Source: Deltaproteobacteria bacterium (lineage in GTDB: Bacteria; Myxococcota; Myxococcia; SLRQ01). Taken from it: a stretch of DNA of 64,000 bases. Of the stretch, positions 8,162 through 28,525 are shown one piece after another; the stretch's first letter is position 1, and the number at the start of each line of letters is the position of its first letter. The position numbers and the translations under genes are program-made. The stretch spans positions 5,542 through 69,541 of the forward strand of contig SLRQ01000005.1 in NCBI GenBank assembly GCA_007130885.1, given 5' to 3'. The notes beneath the pieces were generated by a model, which made no database searches, was not told where the DNA came from, and saw nothing but the letters and a program-made list of their open reading frames with translations.

Positions 8162-11100
8162 ACGAGAGGGATCCCCTGCAACCGGACGCGGGCCGTGGCG
8201 GCATGCTGCCTCGTTTCGCGGTGCGACGACCGGTTACCACGGCCATGATCTTCGTGGCCATAGTCACCATGGGCGCGGTGGGGTTTACGAGGCTGGCGGT
8301 GGACCTCTTGCCCTCGGTGGACATGCCCAGGTTGACGATAGTAACCGGCTACGACGGCGTTGGAGCCGAGGAGATCGAGACGCTGATAACGAGGCCCATC
8401 GAGGAGGCTTTGGCAACGATCCAAAACGTCGAGAGGATCGAGGGGGTCTCGATGGAGGGCACCTCCCGCGTCGTTCTCCAGTTTTCGTGGGACACCGACC
8501 TCGATAGCGCCCTCGGAGACGTTCGGGCCAACCTCGAACGAGTGAGGCACCGCCTTCCCGACGATGCCTCGCAGCCCATTGCTTACAAGTTCGATCTGGG
8601 CGCGATGCCGGTCATGTTTCTCTCTCTATCGAGCGAGGGCATGGATCCTCGTCAGCTTCGCATGCTGGCGGATGACAGGCTCAAGGTCGCTTTGGAGAGA
8701 GTGGAGGGCGTCGCCAGGGTCGATGTACGGGGCGGCCTTCAAAGGCAGATACACGTCGACCTCATCTCCGAGCGGCTGGCCGCTTATGGCGTCTCTCCGC
8801 AAACAGTCGTCTCGGCGCTTCGACGAGAGAACCAAGACGTGCCCGGCGGCAGCGTGCACGATGGAGACCGCGAGCTCATCTTGAAGACCTCGGGTGAGCT
8901 TCGAAGTCTGGAACAGCTTTCGTCCGTGATCGTGACCTACCGGCCGGAGGGGCCGGTCAGGCTGTCGGATCTCGCAAGCGTTCGTGACGCCGCGGAGGAG
9001 AGGAGAAACGTCGTCTGGATTGACCAGGCCGAGGGGATTCGACTCTCGGTCAGCAAGCTCGATGGCGCGAACACCGTTGACGTGGCCAGGCGGCTACGCT
9101 CCGAGGTGGAGCGGCTGGACAAGTCGATGGACGACGTATCGCTGCGAATCCTCGTTGACACAGCCGAGTTCATAGAGGCCTCGGTCACAAGCGTGCAGCA
9201 GGCCGCCGCCGTGGGCGGAGTGCTCGCGGTCATTATCTTGCTGCTTTTCCTGCGGGACATTCGAGCGACTCTGATCATAGCCGCGGCTATACCCATCTCG
9301 GTGATCGGTACCTTCGCATTGATGGATATAGCCGGCGTGACGTTGAACGTCATATCTTTCGGTGGCCTGGCGCTGGGGATAGGGATGCTCGTCGACAGCG
9401 CCATAGTCATATTGGAGAACATCGTCCGTCACCGCGACGACCTTGCTCGCAGGGTCGATGAGGACAGCCGCGATGAGCCTTGGGGCTCATCCGCCGGCGG
9501 CGCTGAAAGGAGTCTCGATCCCCGGGAGGCCGCGGTGGAGGGGAGCCGCGAGGTGGCCTCCGCCGTTACCGCATCCACGTTCACAACGCTTACCGTGTTC
9601 GTGCCGGTGGTTTTCTTGGGCGGATTCGTGGCTATCTTTTTCGGCCAGCTCGCCATGGTGGTGGTCTTCTCGCTCGCCTGCGCGCTCCTTGTGGCTCTCA
9701 CGCTCGTTCCCATGCTGGCGAGCAGGCTTCCTCCCAGGAAGCCCGGCTCCACTCTTGGAAGCGGTCCTATCATGCTGCGGATCGAGAGGCTGTACCGCCG
9801 CTTCATAGCCTGGCTGCTGCGGCGAAAGTGGGTGGCTCTGCTCGTCGCATTGTTCATGCTCGGTGGAGCCTTTGGAATGGTCGCCTTTGGGCTTGTGGCA
9901 ACCGAGCTTGCACCGGATACGGACGAGGGCGATGTTCGAGTGAATGTCGAGCTTCCTCCGGGAACGCGTCTCGAGGTGACAGAGGTCGTCATGAGAGGCA
10001 TTGAGGCCCGGGTCCGAGCCGCCGTACCGGAAGCGGAGGCCATCTTCACTACGATAGGACCCAGAGGCGGATGGGCGGCCGGGAGCAACGTGGCCTCTCT
10101 TCGCGTTCGGATGGTGGATCAGTCGGAGCGAAGCAGGTCGAGCGCGCAGGTAGCGGCCGAGCTTCGGCCCTTGCTCGCGGGTTACCCGGACGCACGAGTT
10201 CGCGTGCGCCCCGGGGGGGGCCTTTGGATTTTTCGAGTTCTTCGCGGAGGTGGAGATCGCCTTCAGGTCGACATCACCGGGTACGACCTGGAGACAGGAG
10301 CGGACTTGGCACGGCAAGTGGCGGACATCATGCGAGGCCTGGAGGAGGTGGCCGACGCGCGAGTTTCGAGGGAGTATGGCGCCTCCGAGCTTGGGATGAA
10401 CGTGGACTGGGAGAGAGCTGCCGCAATGGGCTTGTCTCCATCGGCGGTGGGAGACGCGGTTCGAAGCTACGTGTTGGGCAGCGTGGCGACGCATCTGCGG
10501 GAGGGTGGTGACGAGTACAGGGTGATCGTGCGCCTCGCCGAGGACGACCGACGCCATATCGAGCAGGTCATGGACCTGCCGCTGTTCCCGCCGGGAGGTG
10601 GACAGGTTCCAATCCGCTCCGTGGCTTCGGTCACGGAGCAGCCCGGCACGGTGGCGATTCAGCGGAGGGCCCAGGAACGGATCATCTATGTGACCGGCAC
10701 GCTGGCTGATCCCGATACCGACCTCGGGTCCGTGGCAAGGGAGGTAGAGCGCAGGATCCGATCCGAAGTGGTTGTACCCGAAGGTTTTCACCTGTCGATG
10801 GGAGGCGAGCGCCGCGAACAGGACGAGACCTTCGGAGGCTTGATGCTGGGGCTCATACTCGCCATGGCGCTGGTCTACATGGTGATGGCGGCGCAGTTCG
10901 AGAGCCTGGTGCAGCCGTTCATCATCATGTTCGCCGTTCCCCTGGCGTCGCTGGGTGTGGTGTTGAGTCTCGTCATAACCGGGACCAGCTTCAACATGTA
11001 CAGCTTTCTGGGCGCGATAGTGCTGGTTGGGATCGTCGTGAATAACGCCATCGTGCTGGTCGACTACACGAACATGTTGCGCCGGGAAAAAGGCTATGGA

Positions 11101-14908: not shown

Positions 14909-17900
14909 TTACGGATCTTCCGGTGCCGGAGCGAAGTTCACGCTTGGGTCACTGCCCGTCCAGATACTGATATCCAGGCTGCTCTGGTAGATGCCGGCCG
15001 GTGGATCATCCCAGAACGGGTTGAAATGGGCTAAGGTGCACACCATGAACTGCACGTGGCTGCCGGCAAGGGCGTTATAGTTATGCGCTGCCATCAACCG
15101 ATTGTGGCTGTTCCAGTATGGCGTGTCGTCCCAGGTCCTATTCGTCACATCTCGGCAGACGCCGTCCTCGTTACAGAACATGCTCCACCACTCCATTTGG
15201 TTTTGCGTCTCCGCCCAAATGTCGAACCTTGTCCTGAGACTCGATCCGCTTTCCGGCAGGTAGAACCATGGCGTGGTAAGGCAGCTCCCCTCGTTTGCAT
15301 AGGCATAGCCTCCGAGGTGAGTGCCCCAGGCCCTGCTGTTGAATTTTCCGGTAACGCCCGACGGGCCGTAGGTGGGCGTGCCCCACTCCCAGCTACTGCT
15401 TCGGCCGTCGAAGGGGGTATCCGGAGTCATGCCGCCGTCGTTTCCTTGGAAGTCGGCTTGATACAGCGGCTGCGTGCCGCCGAAGCCCTCGAAGGAAAGG
15501 CCGGTGTTGTCGGTGTCGCGAGCCGTGAACCGGGTTTGTGAGAAGGTGTCGGTCGTCAGCTCGACGACCACGCGCCCGTACTCGGTCTCGACGTAGACTA
15601 TTCTGGCACCCTCACCCTCGATGATGCTTCCCTCGACGGCCGCGGTGAAGCGAGCTCGGTCCCATGTTTCCTCGAGTGTGAAACGGACCGGATCGGAGTC
15701 CTCCACCAGGTGGCCGAAGGCATCCTGGAGCTCGATCTCCAGCTCCACCGTCTCGTCTCCCGCCTCGGGCTGGTCGATAGGAAGCAGCACCAGCCTTGCA
15801 GGCACGGATGGTTCCGCGGAGGCCACGAACTCGACGGGATCCAGCTCGAAGTCGCAGCCGGTACTCAGCTCGGCCTCGAGCATGTTGTTGTCATCCCCGG
15901 CATCCGGGCCGAGCCGCCACCAATTGACGAAAGCCTCTCCATTCTGGTTCGTGTTCGACCATCGCCCCCAACCGGGGTGGCCTTCGACCTCACCGCCGCC
16001 CTCTTCGACACTCCATTCAACCCAGAGGCCCGGTATCGGCAGGCCGTCTTCATCCTCGACCCTGACTCCCACCGTCTCGGGCAGATCCTGACCTGCCACG
16101 CCGGCGAGCGGACCGTCATTCAGCGCCACGAAGGAGACGGGGTCGCCTGTGAACCGGCGAGCCGTCGTCGCGGAGTCGTCGAGGCCGACGCTCTCATCCT
16201 CGAGCGATAGGGTGACCAGCTCCGCGTTCTCGTTGGTCATTCTAACCTCGGCGCCGAAGTACCACTGCCCTCTCTTGCTGAAGAAGGTGCCTTCCATGAA
16301 GATCGAGGGGAGGCCTCCTCCTCCTCCGACGACGATTCCCCTCTCGCCCGTTCTATCGATTAACTCTGGCGTATCTTCGCCGTCACCTTCGGCGTGTATC
16401 CAGAACCGCGGCTTGTCCGGGCCGTCGGGATAAGCCGCGTTGCCAAGCTCGTCGCGCATGACGACGAGGACATCGATGTTTCCGCCGCGCTTTGAGTCCT
16501 TGTGCGCGTTGCCGCCACCGGCCCCCTCGAGCAGGCGAAGGAAAGCAAGCTCCACAGGAGGACCGGGGTTGAAGTCCACCGTTACGTCGTCCCACCTGGC
16601 CTGCATCGGTCCGGGGAAGCCTTCGATCTCGAGCCCTATCAGGCCGTCGATCATGATCTCACCCGAGAGTTCGGTCGCCAGCTCGATCTCGGCCAGGCCG
16701 CCGGAGACCTGCAACACCACTTCGGTTGTTCCGCCGCCGTCTATCACCGTGCCGGTCTCGGCCTCCTCGGCAAATGTGGCGGGACTGTGGCCGATGAGCG
16801 TCACCTCCATCTCGTCTTCCCAGCTTACGATGTTGCCGTACTGATCGTGAACGAACGCCGTCAACATGAAAGGCTCGAGCACGCTTGCTTCCTCGAGATC
16901 TTCATGGTCGAAGCGAATGCCGGCGATTCCTTCGGCGATGGCGGTTGCGGAAAACTCGATCTCGGCTATGGACCAGTTCTCGAAGTCCCACTCGCCGAGT
17001 TCGGTCGTATCCAGCAGGGCGCCAAGCAAGATGTCTCTCGGGCCGGCCACGTCGTTGAACCTTATGGAAGCAAACGCCAGGCCGTTCTCGTTGGTATGGT
17101 CATCCTCGAACAATATGTCGTCGTCCCAGGGGTGATCCTCGTCGTATGGCCCGGACACCATCATGGGGCCGACGGGAACTCCGGGGATGGCTTGCCCGGC
17201 CGAGTTGACGGCTCTGAACACCATGGGCTGCTCAGTCCGCCGTGTTACGGGCGCTTCCTGGTCGTTGCCCGCGACAAGCTCCAGCTCGTGCGCGCCTTCA
17301 GCGGTGACCATCACCGTGTCGGGCCTGCCGCAGATCTCGAAGTCGCAAGGATAAGCGGCGATCTCGTACTCCCCTTCCTTGTCGATGCGCAAGGTCGGCG
17401 TCATTTGTTGGTTTCCGTCGAGCCAAGTATTGGACCCTTCGGGTGCGGACAGTATTACCCACTCGAGCCAGAAGGGCCCGCCTTCCGGGTGGAAGGAGCC
17501 GGTGCCGTCGAGCTGGACTGTCGTTTGGTTCCAGAACATGCCGGGGGCGGGAGCCATCATGTCGTCGCCGGCGTCCGCGACGGGGTTTCTGGTGAAGGTT
17601 GTGGGATCGCCATCCGCTTGCACTCGCACGCGGTCGCGGGCGGCGCCGACCTCGTTGGTCGCGGTAAGCTCGATCAAGTACTCGCCGGCCCTGTCGGCCA
17701 GGAACCAGGGAGTCAGGGAGGTGGCCGCCGACAGCTCTGCCTTGCTGCCCTCGGGCACCGATACGAAGTGCCACGCCACGGTGAAGCCGTTTTCGGAAGG
17801 ATCGGTCACGTCGCCGACTAGCTGCGCGATCTCGTTGGTTTCGACGCTCTGGTCCTCACCCGCGTCCGCGGTGGGCAGCATGGCCATCTCAATGTGCTCG

Positions 17901-18256
17901 CCGGCCGCGGTGACCGTCACGTCGGCCTTGCCGATGCGCTCGTCTTGCTCGACCTCGAGCTCGAGTACGTAGTCGCCCTCCGTATCGGCGACGAACCAAG
18001 GGGTGAGAGTGTCGGCTGCGGTGAGCTCGGCCAGGCTGCCGGCTGGAGCCTGTACGATGCGCCAACCGATGGTTATTGGATCGTCCTGGTGCAAATTGAC
18101 GGAGCCTTCAAGTCCCACTAACTCGCCGGTGACGACCTCTTGGTCTTCACCGGCGTCTACTTCCGGTGCTTTGGCGCAGCCGCCGAGTGCCAATAAAGCG
18201 GTTAGCGCAATGGTAAGCGCTCCAAAACCGACACGCTTGGTAAACATGCATTTCAT
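14909..18256 (-). CDS. large cell-surface lipoprotein with multiple PKD-like repeats and an uncharacterised Cys/Trp-rich C-terminal domain
   Basis: ATG at 18256 preceded by GGGAGGGAG. Signal MKCMFTKRVGFGALTIALTALLALGGCAK with lipobox. Repeated ADAG[E/D]DQ.V......L.G....P....W..V..P.GS modules typical of PKD domains. The C-terminal ~250 aa (…GYAYANEGSCLTTPWFYLPESG…FCNEDGVCRDV…) has no obvious family. The 18257-18616 extension in the ORF track is unlikely to be translated. Confidence 0.7.
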   Translation of the reverse strand: MKCMFTKRVGFGALTIALTALLALGGCAKAPEVDAGEDQEVVTGELVGLEGSVNLHQDDPITIGWRIVQAPAGSLAELTAADTLTPWFVADTEGDYVLELEVEQDERIGKADVTVTAAGEHIEMAMLPTADAGEDQSVETNEIAQLVGDVTDPSENGFTVAWHFVSVPEGSKAELSAATSLTPWFLADRAGEYLIELTATNEVGAARDRVRVQADGDPTTFTRNPVADAGDDMMAPAPGMFWNQTTVQLDGTGSFHPEGGPFWLEWVILSAPEGSNTWLDGNQQMTPTLRIDKEGEYEIAAYPCDFEICGRPDTVMVTAEGAHELELVAGNDQEAPVTRRTEQPMVFRAVNSAGQAIPGVPVGPMMVSGPYDEDHPWDDDILFEDDHTNENGLAFASIRFNDVAGPRDILLGALLDTTELGEWDFENWSIAEIEFSATAIAEGIAGIRFDHEDLEEASVLEPFMLTAFVHDQYGNIVSWEDEMEVTLIGHSPATFAEEAETGTVIDGGGTTEVVLQVSGGLAEIELATELSGEIMIDGLIGLEIEGFPGPMQARWDDVTVDFNPGPPVELAFLRLLEGAGGGNAHKDSKRGGNIDVLVVMRDELGNAAYPDGPDKPRFWIHAEGDGEDTPELIDRTGERGIVVGGGGGLPSIFMEGTFFSKRGQWYFGAEVRMTNENAELVTLSLEDESVGLDDSATTARRFTGDPVSFVALNDGPLAGVAGQDLPETVGVRVEDEDGLPIPGLWVEWSVEEGGGEVEGHPGWGRWSNTNQNGEAFVNWWRLGPDAGDDNNMLEAELSTGCDFELDPVEFVASAEPSVPARLVLLPIDQPEAGDETVELEIELQDAFGHLVEDSDPVRFTLEETWDRARFTAAVEGSIIEGEGARIVYVETEYGRVVVELTTDTFSQTRFTARDTDNTGLSFEGFGGTQPLYQADFQGNDGGMTPDTPFDGRSSSWEWGTPTYGPSGVTGKFNSRAWGTHLGGYAYANEGSCLTTPWFYLPESGSSLRTRFDIWAETQNQMEWWSMFCNEDGVCRDVTNRTWDDTPYWNSHNRLMAAHNYNALAGSHVQFMVCTLAHFNPFWDDPPAGIYQSSLDISIWTGSDPSVNFAPAPEDP

Positions 18257-18468
18257 GAAGATCTCCCTCCCAATAAGGTAGATGAATCGAGGCCGAGGGA
18301 TCTCGGCCAGCGCACTATAGCGGCCACAAGGACGGGTAGCAACTTGAATTTCAGTGACCAGCACTGGTGGTGCGCAATTTATGCGGCATGTTTGGGACTT
18401 GCCACTGATCCGGGGCTCCCTACATCTAGCTAACCCACGGCGTGAACAGCGGCCCGGAGTGCCCGCGC

Positions 18469-21180
18469 ATGATCGATAAGGTCCCGACAAAGCCATGGCA
18501 TGCAGCATCAAGCACCGATGTGCTCGGTCAGCTGAGCGCGGATTTGGAAGGATTGTCGGAGGAGGAAGCACAGCGACGATTGGAGCGGTTCGGAGAGAAC
18601 CGCGTGGAGCAAGCACTAGGCAGCACCGCTTGGGAGCGCCTGAAAGGGCAGCTTACCAACATCCTCATCATATTATTGATCGCCTCCGCCATACTCGCCG
18701 CGCTGGTTGGAGCCTTACTTGACGCGGTCGTGATCCTGGCGGTGGTGGTCGTGAATACCGTCATAGGATTCGTGCAAGAAGGAAAGGCCGAACGGGCAAT
18801 CGAGAGCATCAAGAGAATGCTCTCACCCAAGGCCAGGGTCTTGCGCAAAGGGGTCCGGCACGAAATCGACGCGGAAAGGGTCGTGCCGGGGGACATAGTA
18901 GTCCTGAAGGCTGGGGATAGGGTTCCGGCCGATCTCCGCCTGCTGGAAGTCGATGCGCTAAGTGCCGATGAGGCGGTGCTTACGGGGGAGTCGGTCTCTT
19001 CGAGCAAGCAGGTCGAGCCCGTGGACGAGGAAGCAGAGCTCGGGGACCGCCTCTGCATGGCTTACTCGAGCACGGTGATCACCAGCGGAGGCGGGAAGGG
19101 TGTGGTGATCGCCACGGGAACCGAGACGGAGGTTGGGCGAATCTCCAGCATGCTCGCCCACGTCAGGAAAATTCGCACGCCGCTTTTGCGGAAGATGGAC
19201 CAGTTCGGCAAGCTGCTCAGCATAATCATAGTAGCCGTCGCCGCGCTTACCTTCGTGATTGGTTATCTGCTGCGAGACTACGGCCTTCTGGAGATGTTCT
19301 TGGCTTCGCTGAGCCTGGCCGTGGCGGCAATCCCTGAAGGCCTGCCCGCGATAATGACCATTACGCTCGCCATGGGCGTTCGCCGCATGGCGGCTCGCAA
19401 GGCCATTATCCGTCGCTTGCCGGCCGTGGAAACGCTCGGTTCCGTCACGGTGATCTGCTCCGACAAGACCGGCACGTTGACGCGAAACGAGATGACCTTG
19501 AAAACAGTGGTCACGAGGGATGCCGAGTACCACGTGGAGGGAGTAGGGTATGTGCCGAAAGGGCGGTTTCGTCGCGGCGAGCGTGTAGTATCTTTGCTGG
19601 AGCAGCAAGACTTGCTTCAAGTATTGAGGGCGGGCTTGCTTTGTGGAGATGCCTTGCTTCACTGGCGCGACGGCAAGTGGCTCATCGAGGGAGATCCCAC
19701 GGAGGGGGCCTTGGTCGTCGGCGCCGTCAAGGCCGGCCTCGAGCGGGTGCGGGAGAGCAAGGCCAATCCTCGCCGAGGCGTCATCCCTTTCGACTCCAGG
19801 CACAAGTTCATGGCGACCCGGCACGATACTTCGCGTGGAGACGGAATCATCTACGTGAAGGGGGCTCCCGATACCTTGTTGGATATGTGCGATCTTCAGC
19901 AGCAGGGGGAAGAGCTGGAAAAGATAGATGTGGACTGGTGGCATGCGAAAGTAAAGGAGGTCGCTTCAAGGGGACAAAGGACTCTTGGCATCGCCTACCG
20001 AAAAGTTTCACCAGGTCGAAAGGGGCTGACATTCGACGACCTCGAGAGCGGGGTGGTGTTTTTGGGGCTCGTCGGAATGATCGATCCTCCAAGAGAGGAA
20101 GCGATTCAGGCGGTGGATGCGTGTCACTCGGCCGGGATCAACGTGAAAATGATTACAGGAGATCACGCCGTGACGGCGCAGTCGGTGGCCCGGCAGATGC
20201 ACATCGAAAAAGGCGGCGTCATGACAGGCCGGGAGATAGAGCACGCTTCCGAAGAAGATCTAGCAAGTCGTGCCCTGGAGGTGAACGTCTTCGCAAGAAG
20301 CAGTCCCGAGCACAAGCTGCGCTTGGTACGGGGGCTTCAACAGCGGCGTGAGGTGGTCGCGATGACAGGGGACGGTGTCAACGACGCCCCGTCGCTGAAA
20401 CAAGCGGACATCGGCATAGCGATGGGTCAGAAAGGAACCGATGCGGCAAGAGAGGTCTCGGAGATGGTGCTTGCCGACGACAACTTCGCTTCCATAGCAA
20501 ACGCGGTCGAGGAGGGCCGTGGCGTATACGATAATCTGCGCAAGACCCTCATATTCATCCTTCCGACGAACGGAGGGCAGGCTCTTACCATCGTTGCCGC
20601 TATCGCGCTCGGTCTTGCGCTTCCTCTTCGTCCCGTGCACGTGCTCTGGGTCAACATGGTGGTTGCCGTGACGTTGGCGTTGGCTCTGGCATTCGAGCCG
20701 ATAGAGCGGGATGTAATGCAGCGAAGGCCGCGACACCCGGATACGCCGCTCATCACGACTTTTCTGATGTGGCGAATCGGGTTCATGTCCGCTCTGCTGC
20801 TGATCGGAACTCTTGGCCACTTCTCGCTGGAGCTGTTCGTCTCGGGTCGGGGTCTCGACTATGCTCGCACGGCCGCGATCAACACGCTGGTGATGGGCCA
20901 GGTCTTCTACCTTTTCAACAGCCGCTACATGGTGAGAGCCACCGCGAACAAGGAAGGCATTTTCGGCAGCCGGGCTGTGTGGCTCGCCGTCGGGGTGCTC
21001 TTGTTGCTGCAAGCTGCCTTCAATTTCTTGGAGCCCATGCAGGTGGTCTTCGGCACGGTGGAGCTCGAGTGGCTGGCTTGGGCTCGGATTCTGGGGTTCG
21101 GTATAGCGGTCTATGTACTGGTCGAGGTGGAAAAAGCGGTCTTGCGATGGAAATGGGGGTGCAGCGAGGCGGTGCGTTAG
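18469..21180 (+). CDS. cation-transporting P-type ATPase (P2-type, Ca2+/Mg2+-ATPase-like)
   Basis: DKTGTLT phosphorylation motif and TGDGVNDAPSLK hinge motif. 10 TM segments. The N-terminal cation ATPase domain starts MIDKVPTKPWHA. Confidence 0.85.
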   Translation: MIDKVPTKPWHAASSTDVLGQLSADLEGLSEEEAQRRLERFGENRVEQALGSTAWERLKGQLTNILIILLIASAILAALVGALLDAVVILAVVVVNTVIGFVQEGKAERAIESIKRMLSPKARVLRKGVRHEIDAERVVPGDIVVLKAGDRVPADLRLLEVDALSADEAVLTGESVSSSKQVEPVDEEAELGDRLCMAYSSTVITSGGGKGVVIATGTETEVGRISSMLAHVRKIRTPLLRKMDQFGKLLSIIIVAVAALTFVIGYLLRDYGLLEMFLASLSLAVAAIPEGLPAIMTITLAMGVRRMAARKAIIRRLPAVETLGSVTVICSDKTGTLTRNEMTLKTVVTRDAEYHVEGVGYVPKGRFRRGERVVSLLEQQDLLQVLRAGLLCGDALLHWRDGKWLIEGDPTEGALVVGAVKAGLERVRESKANPRRGVIPFDSRHKFMATRHDTSRGDGIIYVKGAPDTLLDMCDLQQQGEELEKIDVDWWHAKVKEVASRGQRTLGIAYRKVSPGRKGLTFDDLESGVVFLGLVGMIDPPREEAIQAVDACHSAGINVKMITGDHAVTAQSVARQMHIEKGGVMTGREIEHASEEDLASRALEVNVFARSSPEHKLRLVRGLQQRREVVAMTGDGVNDAPSLKQADIGIAMGQKGTDAAREVSEMVLADDNFASIANAVEEGRGVYDNLRKTLIFILPTNGGQALTIVAAIALGLALPLRPVHVLWVNMVVAVTLALALAFEPIERDVMQRRPRHPDTPLITTFLMWRIGFMSALLLIGTLGHFSLELFVSGRGLDYARTAAINTLVMGQVFYLFNSRYMVRATANKEGIFGSRAVWLAVGVLLLLQAAFNFLEPMQVVFGTVELEWLAWARILGFGIAVYVLVEVEKAVLRWKWGCSEAVR

Positions 21181-21185
21181 CGCTG

Positions 21186-22016
21186 TCAGCCCAGAACATA
21201 AGGCCGCCCGGTTTCGGGCTCGGTTCCGGCAACCAGTGGAGTTTGATAGACCTCTTCGAGAACGTCCGGGCGCAGGACGGACAAAGGTGGTCCTTCGGCG
21301 GCTATTGCTCCCTCGTTCAACAGCAGAAGCCGATCGCAGGTGCTCGCCGCGAGGTTGAGATCGTGCAAGACCACCAGCACCGCGATTCCTCGCTCCTCGA
21401 CGCGCTTGCGTAGCGCTTCGAACAGTCGCCGGCGGTGGCGCAGGTCCAGATGAGCGGTCGGCTCGTCGCAGAGCAGGATTCGGGGGTCCTGCGCCAGTGC
21501 GCGCGCTATGAAAGCTCTTTGCCTCTCGCCGCCTGACAAGCGGTCGACAGGCCGGGTCGCCAGATCCTCCAGATCCATCTCTGAAAGAATCTCTCGCACA
21601 AGCGCGATGTCGCCGGCCCCTTCCAAACCGAGACGTCCCAGGTGAGGAGCCCGGCCCATCAACGCCAGCTCTTCCACGGTGAACGAGAAGGGAACGCTCA
21701 GGTCCTGCGGAACCAGAGCTGTTTTTCGCGCTAGTTCTTTGCGGGACCAGCTTGCGAGGCTCCTGCCCGACACGAGACACTCTCCTTCATCGGCCGTCAG
21801 CAGGCCGGCGCAGACTCTCAACAGTGTTGACTTGCCCGCGCCGTTTGGGCCAACGATTCCGACCATCTCTCCCCCGGCGATTGCGGCACTGACGGTGTCC
21901 AACACCAGGTCGCCTCCGCGGGTCCAGCGAAAACAGACTTCGCGAAGCTCGAGGACGGTTTCGCCGGGGGCTCCGCGGGGCTTCTCGACCGGTGCCGCTT
22001 CCGTTCCCTCTCTCAT
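21186..22016 (-). CDS. btuD: ABC transporter ATP-binding protein of the cobalamin/iron-chelate uptake family
   Basis: Walker A GPNGAGKSTLLR, LSGGERQR signature, Walker B ILLCDEP. Last gene of the riboswitch-controlled operon. A 4-bp overlap with the upstream permease gives translational coupling. Confidence 0.8.
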   Translation of the reverse strand: MREGTEAAPVEKPRGAPGETVLELREVCFRWTRGGDLVLDTVSAAIAGGEMVGIVGPNGAGKSTLLRVCAGLLTADEGECLVSGRSLASWSRKELARKTALVPQDLSVPFSFTVEELALMGRAPHLGRLGLEGAGDIALVREILSEMDLEDLATRPVDRLSGGERQRAFIARALAQDPRILLCDEPTAHLDLRHRRRLFEALRKRVEERGIAVLVVLHDLNLAASTCDRLLLLNEGAIAAEGPPLSVLRPDVLEEVYQTPLVAGTEPETGRPYVLG

Positions 22017-23206
22017 CGCGCCCTCCTACTGGACCCTCGACGAAGCAGGACCAGGAAAAGGGGCGCCCCAATCAAAGCGGTGACCGCTCCAACGGGAGGC
22101 TCCGTGCCCACGGGGATGAAGGCGAGCCTTGCGGCGAGATCACAGCAGGCGAGGAATGCGGCTCCGCCCAGGATGGAGGCCGGCAGCAGCAGCCTGTGAT
22201 CGGGTCCAAGCACGAGGCGGAGCATGTGCGGCACCACAAGGCCCACGAAACCGACCAGTCCCGCCAAGCTGACCGTTGCCCCTATCATCAAGGAAATGAC
22301 CACGACCAGCTCCAGGCGCGTCCTGTCCACGTCCACGCCCAGGCTGGCCGCGCTCTCCTCTCCAAGGGAAAGGAAGTTGAGCTTGGACGCGTTTGCCACC
22401 AAGAACCCGATGCCGGCAATTACGATGACCGCACCAACCGCGATGTGTGACCAGGGTTTGTGCGCCAGGGTTCCCACCAGCCAGGGCAGAAGAGCGTGAG
22501 CTTGCTCGGGTGTCACCAGCGTGCGCAGGAACAATATGACCGCGGCGGCGAACGCGTTGAAAACGACGCCCGCCAGGAGCAGAGCGTGCGGGTCTAGACG
22601 CCCGGCCGGACGAGCTATCCAGAGCATCAGCATCGTGGTCGTAAGTGCTCCGACGGCGGCGGCCAATGATATGGGAACCGCTCTGTACCACCCGCCCGCC
22701 TCGGCGGATTCGCCGATCGCTAGAGTATCCGCGCCGGTCAGCACTTGCCCCAGAGCCGTTGTGGACAGAAGGGTTGCGGCCAGGATGGCAAGCGTTGCGC
22801 CGAGGGCCGCTCCTCCGCTGACGCCCAGAACGAAGGGATCGGCGAGTGGATTCCTCAGTATTGCCTGGAGCGTGGCGCCGGCGCCTCCCAGCGCACCGCC
22901 GACCAGCAGACCAAGAACGAGCCTGGGCAAGCGAACTCCGGCGACGATGGTGTGGTCAAGTGAGCCCGATGTGAGAACCATTCCAAGCCGTACGGGCCGG
23001 ACGCCGAGTAACAGGGCCAGCGACGCCACCGCCAAGACCACGACACCGAGAGCGAGAAGACAAAAAGCCCACTTGCGGGGCGTAAGCCTCGTTCTTTCTC
23101 GAGAGGTCCTCTTTCCGGCTTGCATGTCTTTTTTCGGAACGTCTTTGCTCCGATAATCCTGATCGGCCGGCCGCGTGGCATTCGGCTGGGAGTGGCGGGG
23201 GGTCAT
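22013..23206 (-). CDS. btuC: FecCD-family ABC permease (cobalamin/iron-siderophore type)
   Basis: Polytopic membrane protein of FecCD/BtuC family length. Translationally coupled on both sides. Confidence 0.75.
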   Translation of the reverse strand: MTPRHSQPNATRPADQDYRSKDVPKKDMQAGKRTSRERTRLTPRKWAFCLLALGVVVLAVASLALLLGVRPVRLGMVLTSGSLDHTIVAGVRLPRLVLGLLVGGALGGAGATLQAILRNPLADPFVLGVSGGAALGATLAILAATLLSTTALGQVLTGADTLAIGESAEAGGWYRAVPISLAAAVGALTTTMLMLWIARPAGRLDPHALLLAGVVFNAFAAAVILFLRTLVTPEQAHALLPWLVGTLAHKPWSHIAVGAVIVIAGIGFLVANASKLNFLSLGEESAASLGVDVDRTRLELVVVISLMIGATVSLAGLVGFVGLVVPHMLRLVLGPDHRLLLPASILGGAAFLACCDLAARLAFIPVGTEPPVGAVTALIGAPLFLVLLRRGSSRRAR

Positions 23207-24309
23207 TCCTTGATGGCTCGGCCTCTGTCCCAGGCTAGGGTAGCGGCTAGGATTTCCTCTCTTGCCTCCGGATGCAATGCCGTGAGCACCTGGAGGGCGG
23301 AGGCCGGAATGGCGGGGCCGGGACGGAGCAGGGCATTGCCGGGTATTTTGGTGTGTCTGGTGCCCTCCATCCGAGGCAAGGCCTCCGCCTTTCCGTCCGC
23401 CAGCATGGCGGCCTCGATGATTACATCCGGTTGCTGCGATATCAAAAGCTCGAGAGGGTAAGCAGGGTAAGGCGTACCAGCGCTCCTTGCTATGTTCTCG
23501 CCACCGGCCAGCGAGAGCAGCTCGTCGCCGAAAGAGCCCGGCCCGGCAAGAACGAGAGGATCCCTTCCGTAGATAATGGCTGCTCTCGGTGGGTCCCTGT
23601 CCGATGCCGCCTCCTTGATTGTTTCCAGAGCCGCGTCGAAAGAGGCTACGAGCGCTCTTGCTTCATCATGACGTCCGATCCTCGAGCCGACCGCGGAAAT
23701 CGCGGTTCTGGCGCCGGCCACGCCGCCGTGTGGCACCACCAGCACCGGAATGCCCAGCTCTGCCAGGCGTTTCACCGATTCTCGATTGCCTGGGCTTGGC
23801 TCGGCGATGACGAGATTGGGCCTTGTCGCCAAGACCGCTTCCAGGCTCGGGTCGAGAAAGCCCCCTATGCGCGGCACCGACCGGGCGCTGGGGTGATCAC
23901 AAAAGCGGGTTACGCCAACTAGAAGCTCGGATGCTTCCAGGGCCGCCACGATGTCCGTCATCGCAGGGGAGAGGGTGACTACCCGGGAAGGGTTGGCTTC
24001 AGGCGACGGACCCATCATGTAGGGCTCGGCGCTAGATGGTCGCTCGTCCTTGGGTTCCGGCTTGGAGTGTTCGTGCTTCCAGTTTACGGCATTCTCGTCA
24101 AGCGACGTCGCGGCTTCTTGGTCCAGGCATGAAATCGAAAGGGTCGCCGGCAACATCGCCACAAGCAAGATATGAAGAGCGAGCCGGCGCCTTCGGTGAG
24201 AGGCTCCGCGAGCGAATATAGGCTCGCTCGACGCGCGCTTGCACCTTGCAAGGCGGATGAGTGCCTTGCATCTAGGCGCGCCCATTAGCGCCATGGGGCC
24301 ATTGTTCAT
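23203..24309 (-). CDS. btuF: periplasmic substrate-binding protein, cluster A (BtuF/TroA-like) cobalamin-binding
   Basis: VVTLSPAMTDIVAALEASELLVGVTRFCDHP is typical of BtuF-like class III SBPs. N-terminal signal/anchor. Confidence 0.7.
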   Translation of the reverse strand: MNNGPMALMGAPRCKALIRLARCKRASSEPIFARGASHRRRRLALHILLVAMLPATLSISCLDQEAATSLDENAVNWKHEHSKPEPKDERPSSAEPYMMGPSPEANPSRVVTLSPAMTDIVAALEASELLVGVTRFCDHPSARSVPRIGGFLDPSLEAVLATRPNLVIAEPSPGNRESVKRLAELGIPVLVVPHGGVAGARTAISAVGSRIGRHDEARALVASFDAALETIKEAASDRDPPRAAIIYGRDPLVLAGPGSFGDELLSLAGGENIARSAGTPYPAYPLELLISQQPDVIIEAAMLADGKAEALPRMEGTRHTKIPGNALLRPGPAIPASALQVLTALHPEAREEILAATLAWDRGRAIKE

Positions 24310-25499
24310 GGGCTCTCCGCCTCAATCTCGATGATCGCCACGATGCCGTGCCCCGCGGGCTGCATGTCTTCGTCCATATTGTTCAAAGCGACGAGCGCCC
24401 GGCCGTCGCCCGTCAATGCGACTCCTTGAGGAAGAGCGCTGGGCTTCATTTCGCCCAGCGGCAGCAGATCCTCGCCGGACGGCAGACCGGCGCGGGCGAC
24501 GATCCCTCCGGCGTCGAGATCGACCAATACAAGCTCATTCATAAGCCACAAGGTCACGAGGACCTCGTTCCTCGACAGCAGGGCGAGGCTCATTGGGTTG
24601 GTGCCGTTGCCGAGGAAAACCTCATGGGTCGTGGCGGCGGATGGATCCGCGTTGAGGTCGAGCACCTGCAGGGTTTGCGATGTCGAGTTCACGACAAGAG
24701 CCCTGTCCTCGTCGATGATTATGTCGTTTGGAGTCTCGCCTAGCTGCCAGTGAAAGGGGGTGGCCTCCATGTCGCCCTCGAGATCCACCAAGCTCGCGGT
24801 GCCTGCGAGCCCGTCGAGCACGATGGCTTTCTCCTCACCCCATCTAGCGAGAGAGCCGGCTCCGTCTCCCGCGGTTACTCGGCTGGAGATTACCGCGTTG
24901 CGCGCATCGTCCTCCTCCGCGCCCGGCTCGAGACGGAAGCGGACCACTTCGGAGCTCGAGAAACACGAGGCCAGTATCTCATCTTCCGGAGATTCGGCCA
25001 GACCGGCTATGGACTGGAAAAGATTCTCTTCGAAGTTCGAGGGGCATAGAACGACAGGGTCCTCGTGATCGTGAATTATGTCTCCGAGAAGGTCTGTTAC
25101 GAACACCCGGCCGTCCGAGCCATCCGCTATCACCAGTACTTCTTCGAAGACCTTCATGGCTCCGGGCATGCCGCCAAGATGCGTGGACTCCGCGATGGAC
25201 ATATCCGACAGATCTATGATGACTAGGCGACCCTCATTTTCGCCCCATGTTCCGCCGCAAGTGACGTAGGCCATGTCTTGATAAACGGTGATGTAACCGG
25301 GAACCAGGCAGTCCGGCCCAAGATCAATCACCTGCGTCAGCTCCATTGTCCTTGCGAGCTCTTCTTCGTCGTTACCGTTCGCCGCAGGCTCGCCGCAGCC
25401 CAGGACGAAGAAGAGTGCGGTCGAAGCGGCCACGGCCGCCGCGACCCAGCGGCGGCTAATTGAAACGAGAAAGTGAGGAGCGGTCAATTCGAAGTTCAT
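24306..25499 (-). CDS. YVTN-type beta-propeller lipoprotein embedded in the B12 uptake operon (BtuG-like candidate)
   Basis: Lipoprotein signal ...ALFFVLGCGEP. Six or more repeats of the hydrophobic-strand pattern (YVTCGG..GRLVIIDLSD; LVIADGSDGRVFVTDL; AIVLDGLAGTASLVDLEG; ALVVNSTSQTLQVLDLNA; VLVTLWLMNELVLVDLDAG; ALVALNNMDE), characteristic of a beta-propeller. 4-bp overlap with btuF. Confidence 0.55.
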   Translation of the reverse strand: MNFELTAPHFLVSISRRWVAAAVAASTALFFVLGCGEPAANGNDEEELARTMELTQVIDLGPDCLVPGYITVYQDMAYVTCGGTWGENEGRLVIIDLSDMSIAESTHLGGMPGAMKVFEEVLVIADGSDGRVFVTDLLGDIIHDHEDPVVLCPSNFEENLFQSIAGLAESPEDEILASCFSSSEVVRFRLEPGAEEDDARNAVISSRVTAGDGAGSLARWGEEKAIVLDGLAGTASLVDLEGDMEATPFHWQLGETPNDIIIDEDRALVVNSTSQTLQVLDLNADPSAATTHEVFLGNGTNPMSLALLSRNEVLVTLWLMNELVLVDLDAGGIVARAGLPSGEDLLPLGEMKPSALPQGVALTGDGRALVALNNMDEDMQPAGHGIVAIIEIEAESP

Positions 25500-25536: not shown

Positions 25537-27749
25537 TCAGCCTTGCAGATTGACAACGAAAAAAGCGGTTCTTCCGGGCAGTGGGTATCCGTAAAGATCT
25601 TCCAGACGGCGATCGTTCAAGAGATTCGCAACGTGAAGCCCGACGGATAGGTTTCGCCGGATTCCTACTTCGGCGCCTGCTCCGAACAGGGTTCGGCCGG
25701 GTATGGAACGTGTGTTTGCCCTGTTTCTTGGGGCGGAGGACTGGACCTCGAGATCACTGTTGATATCGAGCCTCCCGATGCTCGCGGTCACTCCGGCGAA
25801 GCCTCGATGTCTCGGCCGGTACGGAAGCGTTTGCCCGTGGACGTTGGGCTTCGGCGATAGGTTGACGGCATCGGTCAGGGTATAGGCGCACGATGCCGAC
25901 AGCCAATCGGTGGGTCGCCATTTCGCCTCCGCCTCGAGACCTCTAGTCAACGCTTCTCCCACGTTGAACGGCCGCAGACGCAGAGGAGGGAAGAGTTCAT
26001 AGGTTATTAGGTCTCGATATCGGCTGTGCCATCCCATCACTCGCAAATGAACCTGGTCTTGCGCAAGCTCGACTCCTCCGTCGAACGTGACGGCCGACTC
26101 CGGCTGGAGCTCATCGTTGTTGGCGATGAGCGCCGTTGATCCATGAAGCTCGAAAAGGGTGGGCATGCGCACGCCTCTGCCCACGTTGGCTGACAGCACA
26201 ATGGATGCGGGAAGGGTGATATTCGCGCCGAATCGTGGAGAGAGTGTCGCAGGGTGGCCGCCGAAGGCGTCGAGCCTGATGCCGCCGTGCAGTGTCAAAA
26301 GGTCGTTTGCGAGAAAAGCCGTGTCGGAGACGAGCAGTGAGGCCGCCGGCCGAGTGGTTGCCGCCCCAGTGCCCGATAGCATTTCCATGCTGGCTTCACC
26401 GGAGATCTGGAGAGCCGTGCCGGCCACCAGGGCTTCCGCGGAGCTTCGCAAACCGATTACTCGGCGAGAGTTGGTAAAGGGGCTGCCCAGGCCGGGCGCG
26501 GGGTTCTCGCCCGGCTCATACTCATAGCCGTCGCCGGACATCCACGTAGCGGCGCTCCAACGGACGGACCTGTTGCCCACGGGATCGGAAGTGAAAATGC
26601 CGCCAAGAAGCGACCGTGTCGTGTCGCTGGTCGCCCCCGGTGATGGAAAGCCGACCATGCCGGCAACATCTCTTCGGTTCTTGTGTCCGAAGGCCGTAAT
26701 CTGAAGATGGCCGCCGCTCGCCGGTACCGAAGTCGACAGGATGCCGGAGCCCGAGAGCAGATTGTTGTTATCGCGTTCTTGGGTGGACCAGCTTGCGTCC
26801 GGTATGTTCGGGGTCAACAATCTTTCATACTCGAAGGTACCGCGAGAGGCATAAAGATCGATGCCGGCCGCCGCTCGGACGTTGCCGTCGGTTCCCCTCC
26901 AACCGGCAGCGGTACCGACGCTCTCGAGGCTGTCGCCCCGCGCGGTCAAGGAGCGTTTCGGCTCGAGATCATGGGATGCGCCGGGCGTCAAGGGATTCAG
27001 ATGCAACACTCCGCCCAGAGCTCCCGCTCCGTGTATTGCCGCCTCGGTGCCTCTTGTCACCACCATGCTCTCCAGAAGACTGGGTGGTACGGCGGACAGA
27101 TCGACCGCGCCTCCCCCCGGCGGAGTGATCGGGAGACCGGCCAAGGTTACGACCACCTGATCCGCCGCGGAGCCTCGAATGGAAGCAGTGATCGGTGATC
27201 CGGGCGCTCCACTTCGCCTGAGCGTTACACCGGGGGAACGAGAAATGGCCCTGCCGATGTCTATGGTGGCCCTGTCGGCCCCGCCGATCTCGATCTTGGT
27301 TGCGGCCGATGTTGGCGAGGCTTTATCGGCGGTGTCTCGGTGCACGCCGGCCGCGGTAACGTCTATCGTGGGAGCTTCCAGGACCGTCGTGCCCGAGCGC
27401 TCCCCGCGTTCATCGTCACCGGAAGTCTCATCATCGCTTTCCGTAACGTCGTTGTCATTCTCGCTTGCAGGATCGACAGGCTCGATGCTCGCTGCTTCGG
27501 AAGACTTCTCTTCATGCGCCGCGTCGTCCGCCTTCAGCGGCGAAGCAGTGCCGAGAAGTAATGACGCTGCCGCCAGGAGGGCAAGACGAGCGGAAAGCGA
27601 GGCTGGAAGATCTTCTAGCCGGCCTGCAGACGCTGGAATAGGTAAAGGCCCCGGTCCGGCTTCCTCATGGCTCCATTCCGGCCTACGCCGGAATGACAAT
27701 AGGGGCGCTGTTGCCGCCTTGCCTCGTGTCCCGCTGAACCGGATTTCCA
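25537..27749 (-). CDS. btuB: TonB-dependent outer-membrane receptor, cobalamin-type
   Basis: Plug domain (…GAPGSPITASIRGSAADQVVVTLAGLPI…) and a C-terminal beta-barrel. Immediately downstream, in transcript sense, of a cobalamin riboswitch. The start is ambiguous: the signal-like h-region LALLAAASLLLGTASPLKA lies ~50 aa after the first RBS-supported ATG at 27749. Confidence 0.8.
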
Positions 27750-27814
27750 TTTTTGGCTGCCTCTTTCGACCGAAGAGTCGAGCCACGACGCCCGTGAGGA
27801 TGTCGTCGCACATG

Positions 27815-28005
27815 GCTTGCAGGCAGGTTTCCTGGCTTCCGGGTTCGGATGCTGGTTTGCATCTTGCGCAATCTTCCGCCTTCCCCGCTTACGAGGCGAG
27901 TGGCGCATGGACGATCGCTCCCCGGCTACAGTGGCGGGACCGCGCCGGCTTTTGACCGGTCTTCCCTTTCAACCCCGAGTCCTTTTCGTATCAATCGGGA
28001 CTTGG
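27815..28005 (-). promoter_or_regulatory. cobalamin (AdoCbl) riboswitch in the 5' leader of btuB
   Basis: Minus strand contains AAAGGGAAGACCGGTCAAAAGCCGG (GGGAA/GGTGaAA core), CCCGCCACTG (B12 box) and a 3' CAGCATCC...GCCAGGAAACCTGCC element, in the canonical order. It sits directly upstream of the TonB-dependent receptor. Confidence 0.8.
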
Positions 28006-28135
28006 AGCACCTGCAGCCTCTATTCGAATTGCGGGCACCGTAAATGAAGGTATCTTCGGATGTCAACACCTTCAGTGAATCCCAAATCGTCGGGTGTCTG
28101 TCTCGAGTGGCGTAGGCGGTATGCGGTGAGCGGCG

Positions 28136-28189: not shown

Positions 28190-28525
28190 CTACGGCTGCT
28201 TTGTCGTGATATACGGCAGCAGCTTTTGCAAAGTAGCCTCTCCGATTCCGTTTACGCGAACCAGCTCGTGAGGCAGCCGGAAAGGTCGGACATTTCGTGA
28301 TGCGATGATGCGTTCCGCCAGCACCGGCCCAATCCCCGGAATCGACATGAGCTCCTCCAAGGAGGCGGAGTTGATGTCGACCCGGTGTTGCCCGGCCTCC
28401 ACTCGGGACTGCTCCCGCGATGGCGCCTCCTGTGCCATCGACGGAAGGGCGAGAGTGAAGGCCAGAGCGAAGACAATCAGTGCAATTGTGCTCTTCGTGA
28501 ACGCGACGATCTTTTGTGAGTACAT
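28190..28525 (-). CDS. comEA: ComEA-family helix-hairpin-helix DNA-binding protein
   Basis: Signal/anchor then INSASLEELMSIPGIGPVLAERII...VNGIGEATLQKL, a tandem HhH motif. RBS GGGGAG. Confidence 0.75.
   Translation of the reverse strand: MYSQKIVAFTKSTIALIVFALAFTLALPSMAQEAPSREQSRVEAGQHRVDINSASLEELMSIPGIGPVLAERIIASRNVRPFRLPHELVRVNGIGEATLQKLLPYITTKQP

Follow-up and report, generated by a model that had tools for sequence, protein, structure and literature searches.

A predicted seven-bladed propeller lipoprotein in a cobalamin riboswitch operon outside Bacteroidota is probably a circularly permuted, distant relative of BtuG

The lipoproteins BtuG1 (BT1490), BtuG2 (BT1954) and BtuG3 (BT2095) of Bacteroides are acidic, N-terminally lipidated, seven-bladed beta-propellers of the PF16819 family, encoded beside a vitamin B12 transporter and associated with a cobalamin riboswitch. 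BtuG was reported to be exclusive to Bacteroidetes on the basis of BlastP (Wexler 2018, PMC6143338), and a 2026 review of the B12 relay of B. thetaiotaomicron treats BtuH and BtuJ, not BtuG, beyond Bacteroidota (PMC13616437). Our own literature search for BtuG-like proteins outside Bacteroidota found no description. The gene analysed here lies on the minus strand at 24306–25499 of a window of 64,000 nucleotides (the whole stretch of DNA that was analysed, from contig SLRQ01000005.1), and its product, hereafter the target protein, has in common with BtuG the lipidated N-terminus, the predicted seven-bladed propeller, the acidity, the neighbouring B12 transporter and the cobalamin riboswitch. 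It differs from BtuG in having no direct PF16819 match, a chain order permuted by about half a ring, a longer and low-complexity tether, no Bacteroidota export signal and a Myxococcota-like host. With a permutation of half a ring, the lipid anchor would therefore attach roughly opposite, on the circumference, to its place in BtuG. We consider it probable that the target protein is a remote, permuted relative of BtuG that takes up corrinoid in the propeller pocket for delivery to the neighbouring transporter, on whose outer face it would most likely sit as a lid; a circularly permuted, highly divergent family of BtuG-like lipoproteins in non-Bacteroidota B12 loci would be new.

Related propellers and other capture lipoproteins have been described in several settings. 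Escherichia coli YncE (PDB 3VGZ/3VH0; PF21783) is, like the target protein, a seven-bladed YVTN-type propeller, but it is soluble and periplasmic, reported to bind DNA, not lipidated and encoded outside a B12 locus. The YVTN propeller of a Methanosarcina mazei surface-layer protein (PDB 1L0Q) has the same blade motif, whereas it belongs to an archaeal surface-layer protein with a PKD domain, without lipobox and without transporter or B12 context. By their description, BtuK1 and BtuK2 of B. thetaiotaomicron (PMC13616437) are likewise propeller lipoproteins of a B12 locus and bind cyanocobalamin; unlike the target protein, they have an N-terminal PKD domain. The idea of a lipoprotein encoded beside a transporter and aiding substrate capture is also found in SusD, XusB, HmuY and the DUF4876, DUF4249 and DUF4625 lids, although their folds are unrelated to the propeller. 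Nearly all conserved pairs of a TonB-dependent transporter and its lid are found in Bacteroidota (Price & Arkin, bioRxiv 10.1101/2023.03.17.533168).

The target gene starts at the ATG at 25499, preceded at 6 nucleotides by the Shine-Dalgarno motif GGAG in the 37-nucleotide gap behind the transporter gene, and ends at a TGA (24306–24308), giving a protein of 397 residues. The stop codon overlaps the ATG of the following btuF-like gene as ATGA (cccATGAac), which bears out the translational coupling to btuF proposed in the initial annotation of this DNA. The lipobox claimed there was also found: the N-terminus, MNFELTAPHFLVSISRRWVAAAVAASTALFFVLG followed by the cysteine, reads as a signal peptide with n-region, h-region and lipobox (residues 1–35, FVLG|C35; 25395–25499, minus strand), and a lipobox is present in all eight aligned core members of the family and in most of the wider relatives. 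The residues after the cysteine, GEPAANGNDEEE, are acidic and do not form the export motif of Bacteroidota, a phylum to which the host does not appear to belong. They open an acidic tether (residues 36–50, GEPAANGNDEEELAR; 25350–25394, minus strand) that is predicted to be disordered, with a predicted local distance difference test score (pLDDT) below 50 over residues 1–44, and linkers rich in Gly, Pro and Asp, of about 17–37 residues, occupy the same position in relatives. The mature protein has a net charge of −50 and an isoelectric point of about 4, and its relatives are all acidic. A twin-arginine (Tat)-type export signal, read from SRRW in the n-region, was dropped, as the relatives are without it.

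The structure of the target protein was modelled with AlphaFold2 on an eight-sequence alignment of relatives. The model is all-beta, with 29 strands, a pLDDT of 85.2, a predicted template modelling score (pTM) of 0.83 and disorder over residues 1–44. A seven-bladed beta-propeller is predicted for residues 51–397 (24309–25349, minus strand) by AlphaFold2, Foldseek and the hhalign permutation test described below; the initial annotation had counted at least six blades, and its reservation that structure prediction might give no propeller can be set aside. When the model was compared with the PDB by Foldseek, the top match was E. coli YncE (E 1e-12, template modelling score (TM) 0.78–0.80, 14% identity), and the next was the archaeal propeller 1L0Q.

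A word-indexed homolog search with the target protein returned 2–3 relatives only, and phmmer against the PDB gave nothing significant, with 1L0Q at E 1.6 for the single sequence. To find the relatives, a profile had to be searched exhaustively through 1.84 billion representative proteins, which yielded a colinear core family (P0001–P0007, E 1e-247 to 1e-39), the more distant P0038 and about 160 weaker propeller matches, also at E ≤ 1e-10. Core members are 30–53% identical, and at least seven other clusters at 50% identity have the same neighbours. Therefore, the target gene is not a chance open reading frame (ORF). All core members carry four invariant cysteines in addition to the lipobox, and the core motifs are LGxxC, YVxCxGxW/F, GGxPG, LCPSD, ASCFxxxEV, GDGxG, VVNSxSxTxQVxDL, GDxTNPW, RPQG and NLxEDYxxAGHG. 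The strongest sequence-profile match of the family in the PDB was again 1L0Q (E 2.9e-18, three stretches); as judged from sequence, the target protein belongs to the YVTN-repeat propellers at superfamily level only, and none of the NCBIfam repeat models was matched by it. Pattern scans with the core family found nothing in GTDB genomes or JGI metagenomes, and a metagenome scan with a sister group (P0008–P0012) found 11 loci.

The chain order of the target protein was compared with that of the sister group by hhalign. Against the native target profile, the sister group aligned in two pieces, residues 31–203 on target positions 211–379 (score 229) and residues 204–361 on positions 41–207 (score 207). 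Against a target profile permuted at residue 222, a single alignment was obtained, with a score of 423 (E 2.7e-60, 321 columns, 31% identity). Residues 222–397 of the target protein thus correspond to the N-terminal half of relatives with the BtuG order, and residues 51–221 to their C-terminal half. By these profile alignments, the target protein has the BtuG chain order in circularly permuted form, shifted by about half a ring.

Registers were then assigned to all matches of up to 460 residues from the domain coordinates of the core-family hidden Markov model (HMM), according to the HMM position at which the mature protein begins. Register I, with a start at about position 40, is the target type and comprises 8 clusters; register II (about 155–160) holds P0013 and 8 others; register III (about 196–244) is the BtuG order, with about 65 members; and register IV (about 315–333) holds P0016, P0054 and 7 others. 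The register IV members named individually are P0016, P0054, P0063, P0074, P0084, P0094 and P0099. The two domain matches complement each other, as a true permutation predicts, throughout registers II and IV and for the majority of register III. The break points lie approximately an integral number of blades apart. In each register, most proteins carry a signal peptide and lipobox of their own, and genomic neighbourhoods were available for registers I, II (L013) and III. The tethers of register I, at about 17–37 residues, are longer than that of P0008 (about 11), which would fit an anchor shifted to the far side of the ring. With four permutation registers, the family shows circular permutation of a closed propeller with unusual clarity, and these registers account for the failure of BLAST and Pfam to recognise the relationship. 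Tandem propeller lipoproteins in the register of the target protein, P0006 and P0007, are encoded between transporter and btuF in one locus (L010 10001–12536, equivalent to L011 8716–11251); such tandem copies are raw material for circular permutation through duplication and truncation.

The relation to BtuG itself was assessed against BtuG1-like proteins, which carry PF16819 (DUF5074). The target family aligned with them in hhalign at 95.1% probability (E 3e-8), with target residues 247–392 on BtuG1 83–212; unpermuted, the C-terminal half of the target protein pairs with the N-terminal half of BtuG. With the permuted target profile the probability was 96.7% (E 3.4e-10, 175 columns), and the sister group aligned colinearly at 98.5% (E 3.6e-15, 177 columns). 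At the level of structure, a high-confidence model of P0008 (pLDDT 94.1, pTM 0.90) was compared with known structures: in Foldseek, rank 1 was 1L0Q, and ranks 2–17 were occupied only by 16 chains of BtuG1, BtuG2 and BtuG3 (structures 8OKV, 3DSM, 8BMZ, 8BMY, 8BN0, 8BAI, 8PTF, 8PTD, 8BLW_B, 8BMX_D and 8P97_B). These chains scored E 1e-13 to 6e-11 with a target-normalised TM of 0.69–0.76, or 0.41 for the two-domain 8BLW_B, and the next unrelated propeller followed at E 7e-11. The sister-group protein P0010 passes the PF16819 gathering score (28.3 vs 27.2), P0048 reaches 26.3, and DUF5074 is the top Pfam match for both. Therefore, the target protein is probably a distant BtuG relative, because it is a permutant of the P0008 group, which is itself colinear with BtuG and structurally nearest to it, and because both occupy the BtuG position of B12 loci; profiles and models together favour a homology that is detectable only through intermediates. 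The initial annotation had offered a divergent BtuG homolog and an independently recruited propeller as alternatives: the P0008 group and the permutation favour the former, with independent YVTN recruitment as its remaining rival, and the comparison with BtuG by HMM or HHpred suggested there gave a divided answer, negative for PF16819 and positive in hhalign with the native and permuted profiles, although 1L0Q scores equally.

Corrinoid-contact residues of BtuG1 were taken from bioRxiv 10.1101/2024.02.16.580637, and their numbering was verified on chain 8BLW_B, in which the residue types expected at R141, E180, R244 and E249 are all present and position 139 is Q. In the hhalign alignment, Q139/R141 correspond to N301-P302-M303 of the target protein (family motif TNP[W/M]), E180 to Q358 (family motif [R/L]PQG), and R244 and E249 to G82 and E87 (family motif C-G-G-x-[W/F/Y]). 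The loops that receive these positions are the most conserved loops of the family. BtuG1 and BtuG2 themselves are about 24% identical, with about 60% of their contacts in common. The negative face of BtuG2 attracts corrinoids (PMC10404256), and the acidity of the target protein resembles it in a suggestive way by analogy, although a haloalkaline proteome would also account for this charge.

The B12 context is read from the gene order of the window, which on the minus strand runs riboswitch, transporter, target gene, BtuF-like, BtuC-like and BtuD-like genes. The operon leader holds a cobalamin riboswitch aptamer (27805–28029, minus strand; Rfam RF00174, full model 1–189, 100.5 bits against a gathering score of 31.5, E 5.8e-24). 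Because this full-length riboswitch heads the operon, the locus is corrinoid-regulated and its B12 assignment is firm. The place of the target gene within a B12 operon, between the transporter and the BtuF-like gene, was already given in the initial annotation; the riboswitch was added by the present analysis.

The same arrangement was found in relatives. Complete loci of core relatives (P0002, P0003, P0004, P0006/P0007 and P0038) always have the order transporter, propeller, Peripla_BP_2, FecCD and ATP-binding cassette (ABC) protein, with which the short contig of P0005 is consistent. The order transporter, propeller and binding protein also holds for relatives with the BtuG order (P0008 in L012, and L095, L096, L097 and L100–L102) and for P0013, and in most of the 11 sister-group metagenome loci the propeller gene is preceded by a transporter gene and followed by one for a binding protein. 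Cobalamin riboswitches were detected in the window and in L001, L002, L005, L006, L010, L012, L096, L098, L099 and L101; among the core loci (L001, L002, L005, L006 and L010), one was present wherever upstream DNA sufficed. Adjacency to a btuB-type transporter in a cobalamin riboswitch locus was seen in the window and in at least 15 related loci, and the association with a B12 locus, the absence of which elsewhere had been named at the outset as a reason for doubt, recurs in every relative examined. In L099 (194–1599) and L098 (2148–3530), the riboswitch stands immediately ahead of a gene for a propeller lipoprotein of BtuG order, with no transporter between. Therefore, B12 control applies to the propeller in its own right as well as to its neighbours. 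The L099 gene stands alone as a monocistronic unit followed by an unrelated 3-hydroxyacyl-CoA dehydrogenase-like gene, and the L098 contig ends inside the propeller gene. The GC content of loci in the wider family ranges from 28 to 77%, so the family spans very different lineages.

The sequence of the target protein was located in two NCBI assemblies of metagenome-assembled genomes (MAGs), as an exact copy in GCA_007129935.1 and with 99% identity in GCA_007121905.1, and also in ENA and Logan assemblies. The alanyl-tRNA synthetase of the window is nearest to that of an Anaeromyxobacteraceae MAG (56.6%) and clusters with it and with a Myxococcales MAG, compared with 47–49% identity to Bacteroidota. 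The window also encodes a DUF4388 response regulator, BamD and AcrB, and an NCBIfam scan of ten other window proteins found housekeeping families only, including BamD. As BamD is present, the host is a diderm, and from one marker and a rough tree it appears to have Myxococcota affinities and not to be an ordinary member of Bacteroidota. This agrees with the earlier view that the organism is not a typical Bacteroides, as does the presence of DUF4388 with what was noted then; the GC content of 65% claimed at that time was not reproduced, the window having 60.8%.

Encoded behind a cobalamin riboswitch, the target protein is made only under corrinoid scarcity, when the riboswitch permits expression of the operon. 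In the mechanism proposed here, the lipoprotein would, after export, receive its lipid at Cys35 and reach the outer membrane by sorting. One face of the propeller would hold cobalamin or another corrinoid in its central pocket and hand the ligand to the adjacent TonB-dependent transporter, a contact made most likely as a lid on the outer face, where both the contact and the side of the membrane are presumed; TonB-driven passage and then BtuFCD would finish uptake. Several results weigh against this reading. The target protein matches no Pfam or NCBIfam family (PF16819 not at E ≤ 0.1, PF21783 not at all), and BtuG chains are not within the Foldseek top 50 of its model against the PDB, probably because the order-dependent search of Foldseek penalises a permutation and so favours YncE over BtuG. 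Alternative blade registers reach about 89% probability in hhalign, and much of the sequence resemblance to BtuG lies in the repeating blades. The score of 1L0Q equals or exceeds that of BtuG (69 vs 28 bits by sequence profile), a high score that is due to its very regular repeats. The mapping of the contact site onto conserved loops is suggestive only, with a profile alignment of 21–23% identity, and the acidity may simply mirror a haloalkaline habitat. The likeness of the transporter to BtuB is weak, its top NCBIfam match, TonB-B12 TIGR01779, scoring 95 bits, far under the cutoff of 600. Finally, surface export of lipoproteins is established for Bacteroidota, and we know of no equivalent route for the lineage of the target protein.

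This last point bears on the side of the membrane. The target protein may instead sit on the periplasmic side, with its lipid in the inner leaflet of the outer membrane, where it would take corrinoid from the transporter or store a reserve and pass it to BtuF. By the general sorting rules of the Lol lipoprotein pathway, the Gly at +2 after the cysteine and the ordinary lipobox suggest standard sorting to the outer membrane; the target gene is translationally coupled to btuF, not to the transporter gene, and most non-Bacteroidota diderms may lack the machinery for lid export (Price & Arkin, bioRxiv 10.1101/2023.03.17.533168). However, the nearest characterised relatives, BtuG1–3, are on the extracellular face of BtuB (PMC10404256), and in related loci the propeller gene invariably comes next after the transporter gene, while the long flexible tether and the four conserved cysteines are compatible with either compartment. 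A periplasmic position is, on this balance, rather unlikely. Convergent recruitment, in which a generic YVTN/YncE-type propeller became a B12-locus accessory independently and is like BtuG in function without being its specific homolog, would explain the profile scores, in which 1L0Q exceeds BtuG, its first place in Foldseek for P0008, the alignment of blade repeats in several registers and the Pfam matches of the relatives (24/77 to YNCE, only 8/77 to DUF5074). It is nevertheless unlikely, as it leaves aside the run of 16 BtuG chains right behind 1L0Q for P0008, which lead the next unrelated propeller by about 100-fold, the DUF5074 matches of P0010 and P0048, the coincidence of BtuG1 contact positions with the conserved loops of the family, and the lipoprotein nature, transporter adjacency and riboswitch control common to the target family and BtuG.

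Two further explanations dispense with ligand capture in the BtuG sense. An enzyme or assembly factor, with corrinoid-remodelling, lactonase- or lyase-like activity or a BamB-like role in helping the transporter, is hinted at by the weak Pfam similarity of some relatives to SGL/gluconolactonase, Vgb_lyase and PQQ_2/BamB and by an amidohydrolase gene within the L006 operon. These matches are, however, at the level of blades and at best just reach the threshold. Conservation is not seen in any catalytic motif; it falls on polar and aromatic residues of the loops, as is typical of a binding face. The stand-alone, riboswitch-controlled copy in L099 speaks against a role in transporter assembly, and an enzyme or assembly factor is very improbable. 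Least credible of all is a YncE-like DNA-binding propeller with a coincidental position in the operon: YncE heads the Foldseek matches of the target model, yet the likeness is structural only, at the low identity given above and with no match to the Pfam YNCE family, the target protein is a lipoprotein while YncE is not, and synteny with riboswitch control is kept across loci over the whole range of GC content. The concern that the protein might belong to the known, unrelated YncE-like family is thereby answered.

For the corrinoid-capturing relative of BtuG, a broader proposal can be made more tentatively: BtuG-type lids may extend beyond Bacteroidota, with Myxococcota-like and other lineages placing a B12-capturing propeller on the outer face of the transporter and the anchor having been moved repeatedly by permutation. 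If this were true, lipoprotein-assisted B12 capture would extend to environmental diderms, including the many other uncultured lineages that carry the family, and a lid on the outer face would imply a surface lipoprotein export route outside Bacteroidota, where lipoprotein topology becomes a testable question. The registers, at least four in number, would be a natural experiment on tether position and lid function, and the family would be a source, in haloalkaline and other habitats, of candidate proteins that bind corrinoid with high affinity.

The remaining genes of the operon, all on the minus strand, agree with corrinoid uptake in their annotation. The TonB-dependent outer-membrane transporter (25537–27750; Pfam Plug and TonB_dep_Rec_b-barrel) is BtuB-like by context, and its start was set at the ATG at 27750, following the gene call of 737 residues on the 99%-identical contig L002. 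Its longest ORF begins at an ATG at 27813, within the riboswitch aptamer (N-terminal region, 27540–27813). From the ATG at 27750, about 65 residues still precede the signal-peptide-like stretch LSARLALLAAASLLLGTASPLKA, near which there is no canonical start codon, and between the predicted cleavage site and the TonB-box-like TVLEAPTIDVTA lies a long, acidic segment of low complexity. The BtuF-like periplasmic binding protein (23203–24309) matches Pfam Peripla_BP_2 (1.3e-26) and, below the cutoff, NCBIfam BtuF PRK03379 (2.5e-21). It has an N-terminal extension of about 100 residues in which an Arg-rich n-region (HRRRRLAL) and a long linker occur together with LSIS|C, a possible lipobox; given this extension, the BtuF-like protein may itself be a lipoprotein. 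The BtuC-like ABC permease (22013–23206) matches Pfam FecCD (4.8e-78), with vitamin B12 permease BtuC as its top NCBIfam match (2.2e-71), and the final gene of the operon encodes a BtuD-like ABC ATPase (21186–22016; Pfam ABC_tran) with a corrinoid ABC transporter ATPase as top NCBIfam match (2.2e-75). A convergent P-type ATPase gene (18442–21180) closes the operon downstream of the BtuD-like gene. In the related locus L006, an Amidohydro_2 (PF04909) gene (8725–9861) is inserted between the btuC-like and btuD-like genes and could encode an enzyme that remodels or salvages corrinoids.

Just upstream of the riboswitch, the window encodes a small secreted ComEA-like helix-hairpin-helix protein of 111 residues (28190–28525, minus strand), followed by a GC-rich hairpin. 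Products with the same domain, HHH_3, also lie upstream of riboswitch and transporter in L002, L006, L010 and L012. Therefore, the neighbourhood is conserved across permuted and non-permuted subfamilies. Two ORFs, at 20260–21780 (minus strand, 506 residues) and 27179–27955 (plus strand, 258 residues), overlap real genes out of frame and have low-complexity translations rich in Arg, Ser and Ala; they are most likely artefacts of high GC content and not genes. About 2.6 kb downstream of the B12 operon, past the convergent P-type ATPase gene, an ORF of 1235 residues (14909–18616, minus strand) encodes PKD-like and Big_1 Ig-like domains; its product is a large protein, secreted or of the cell surface.

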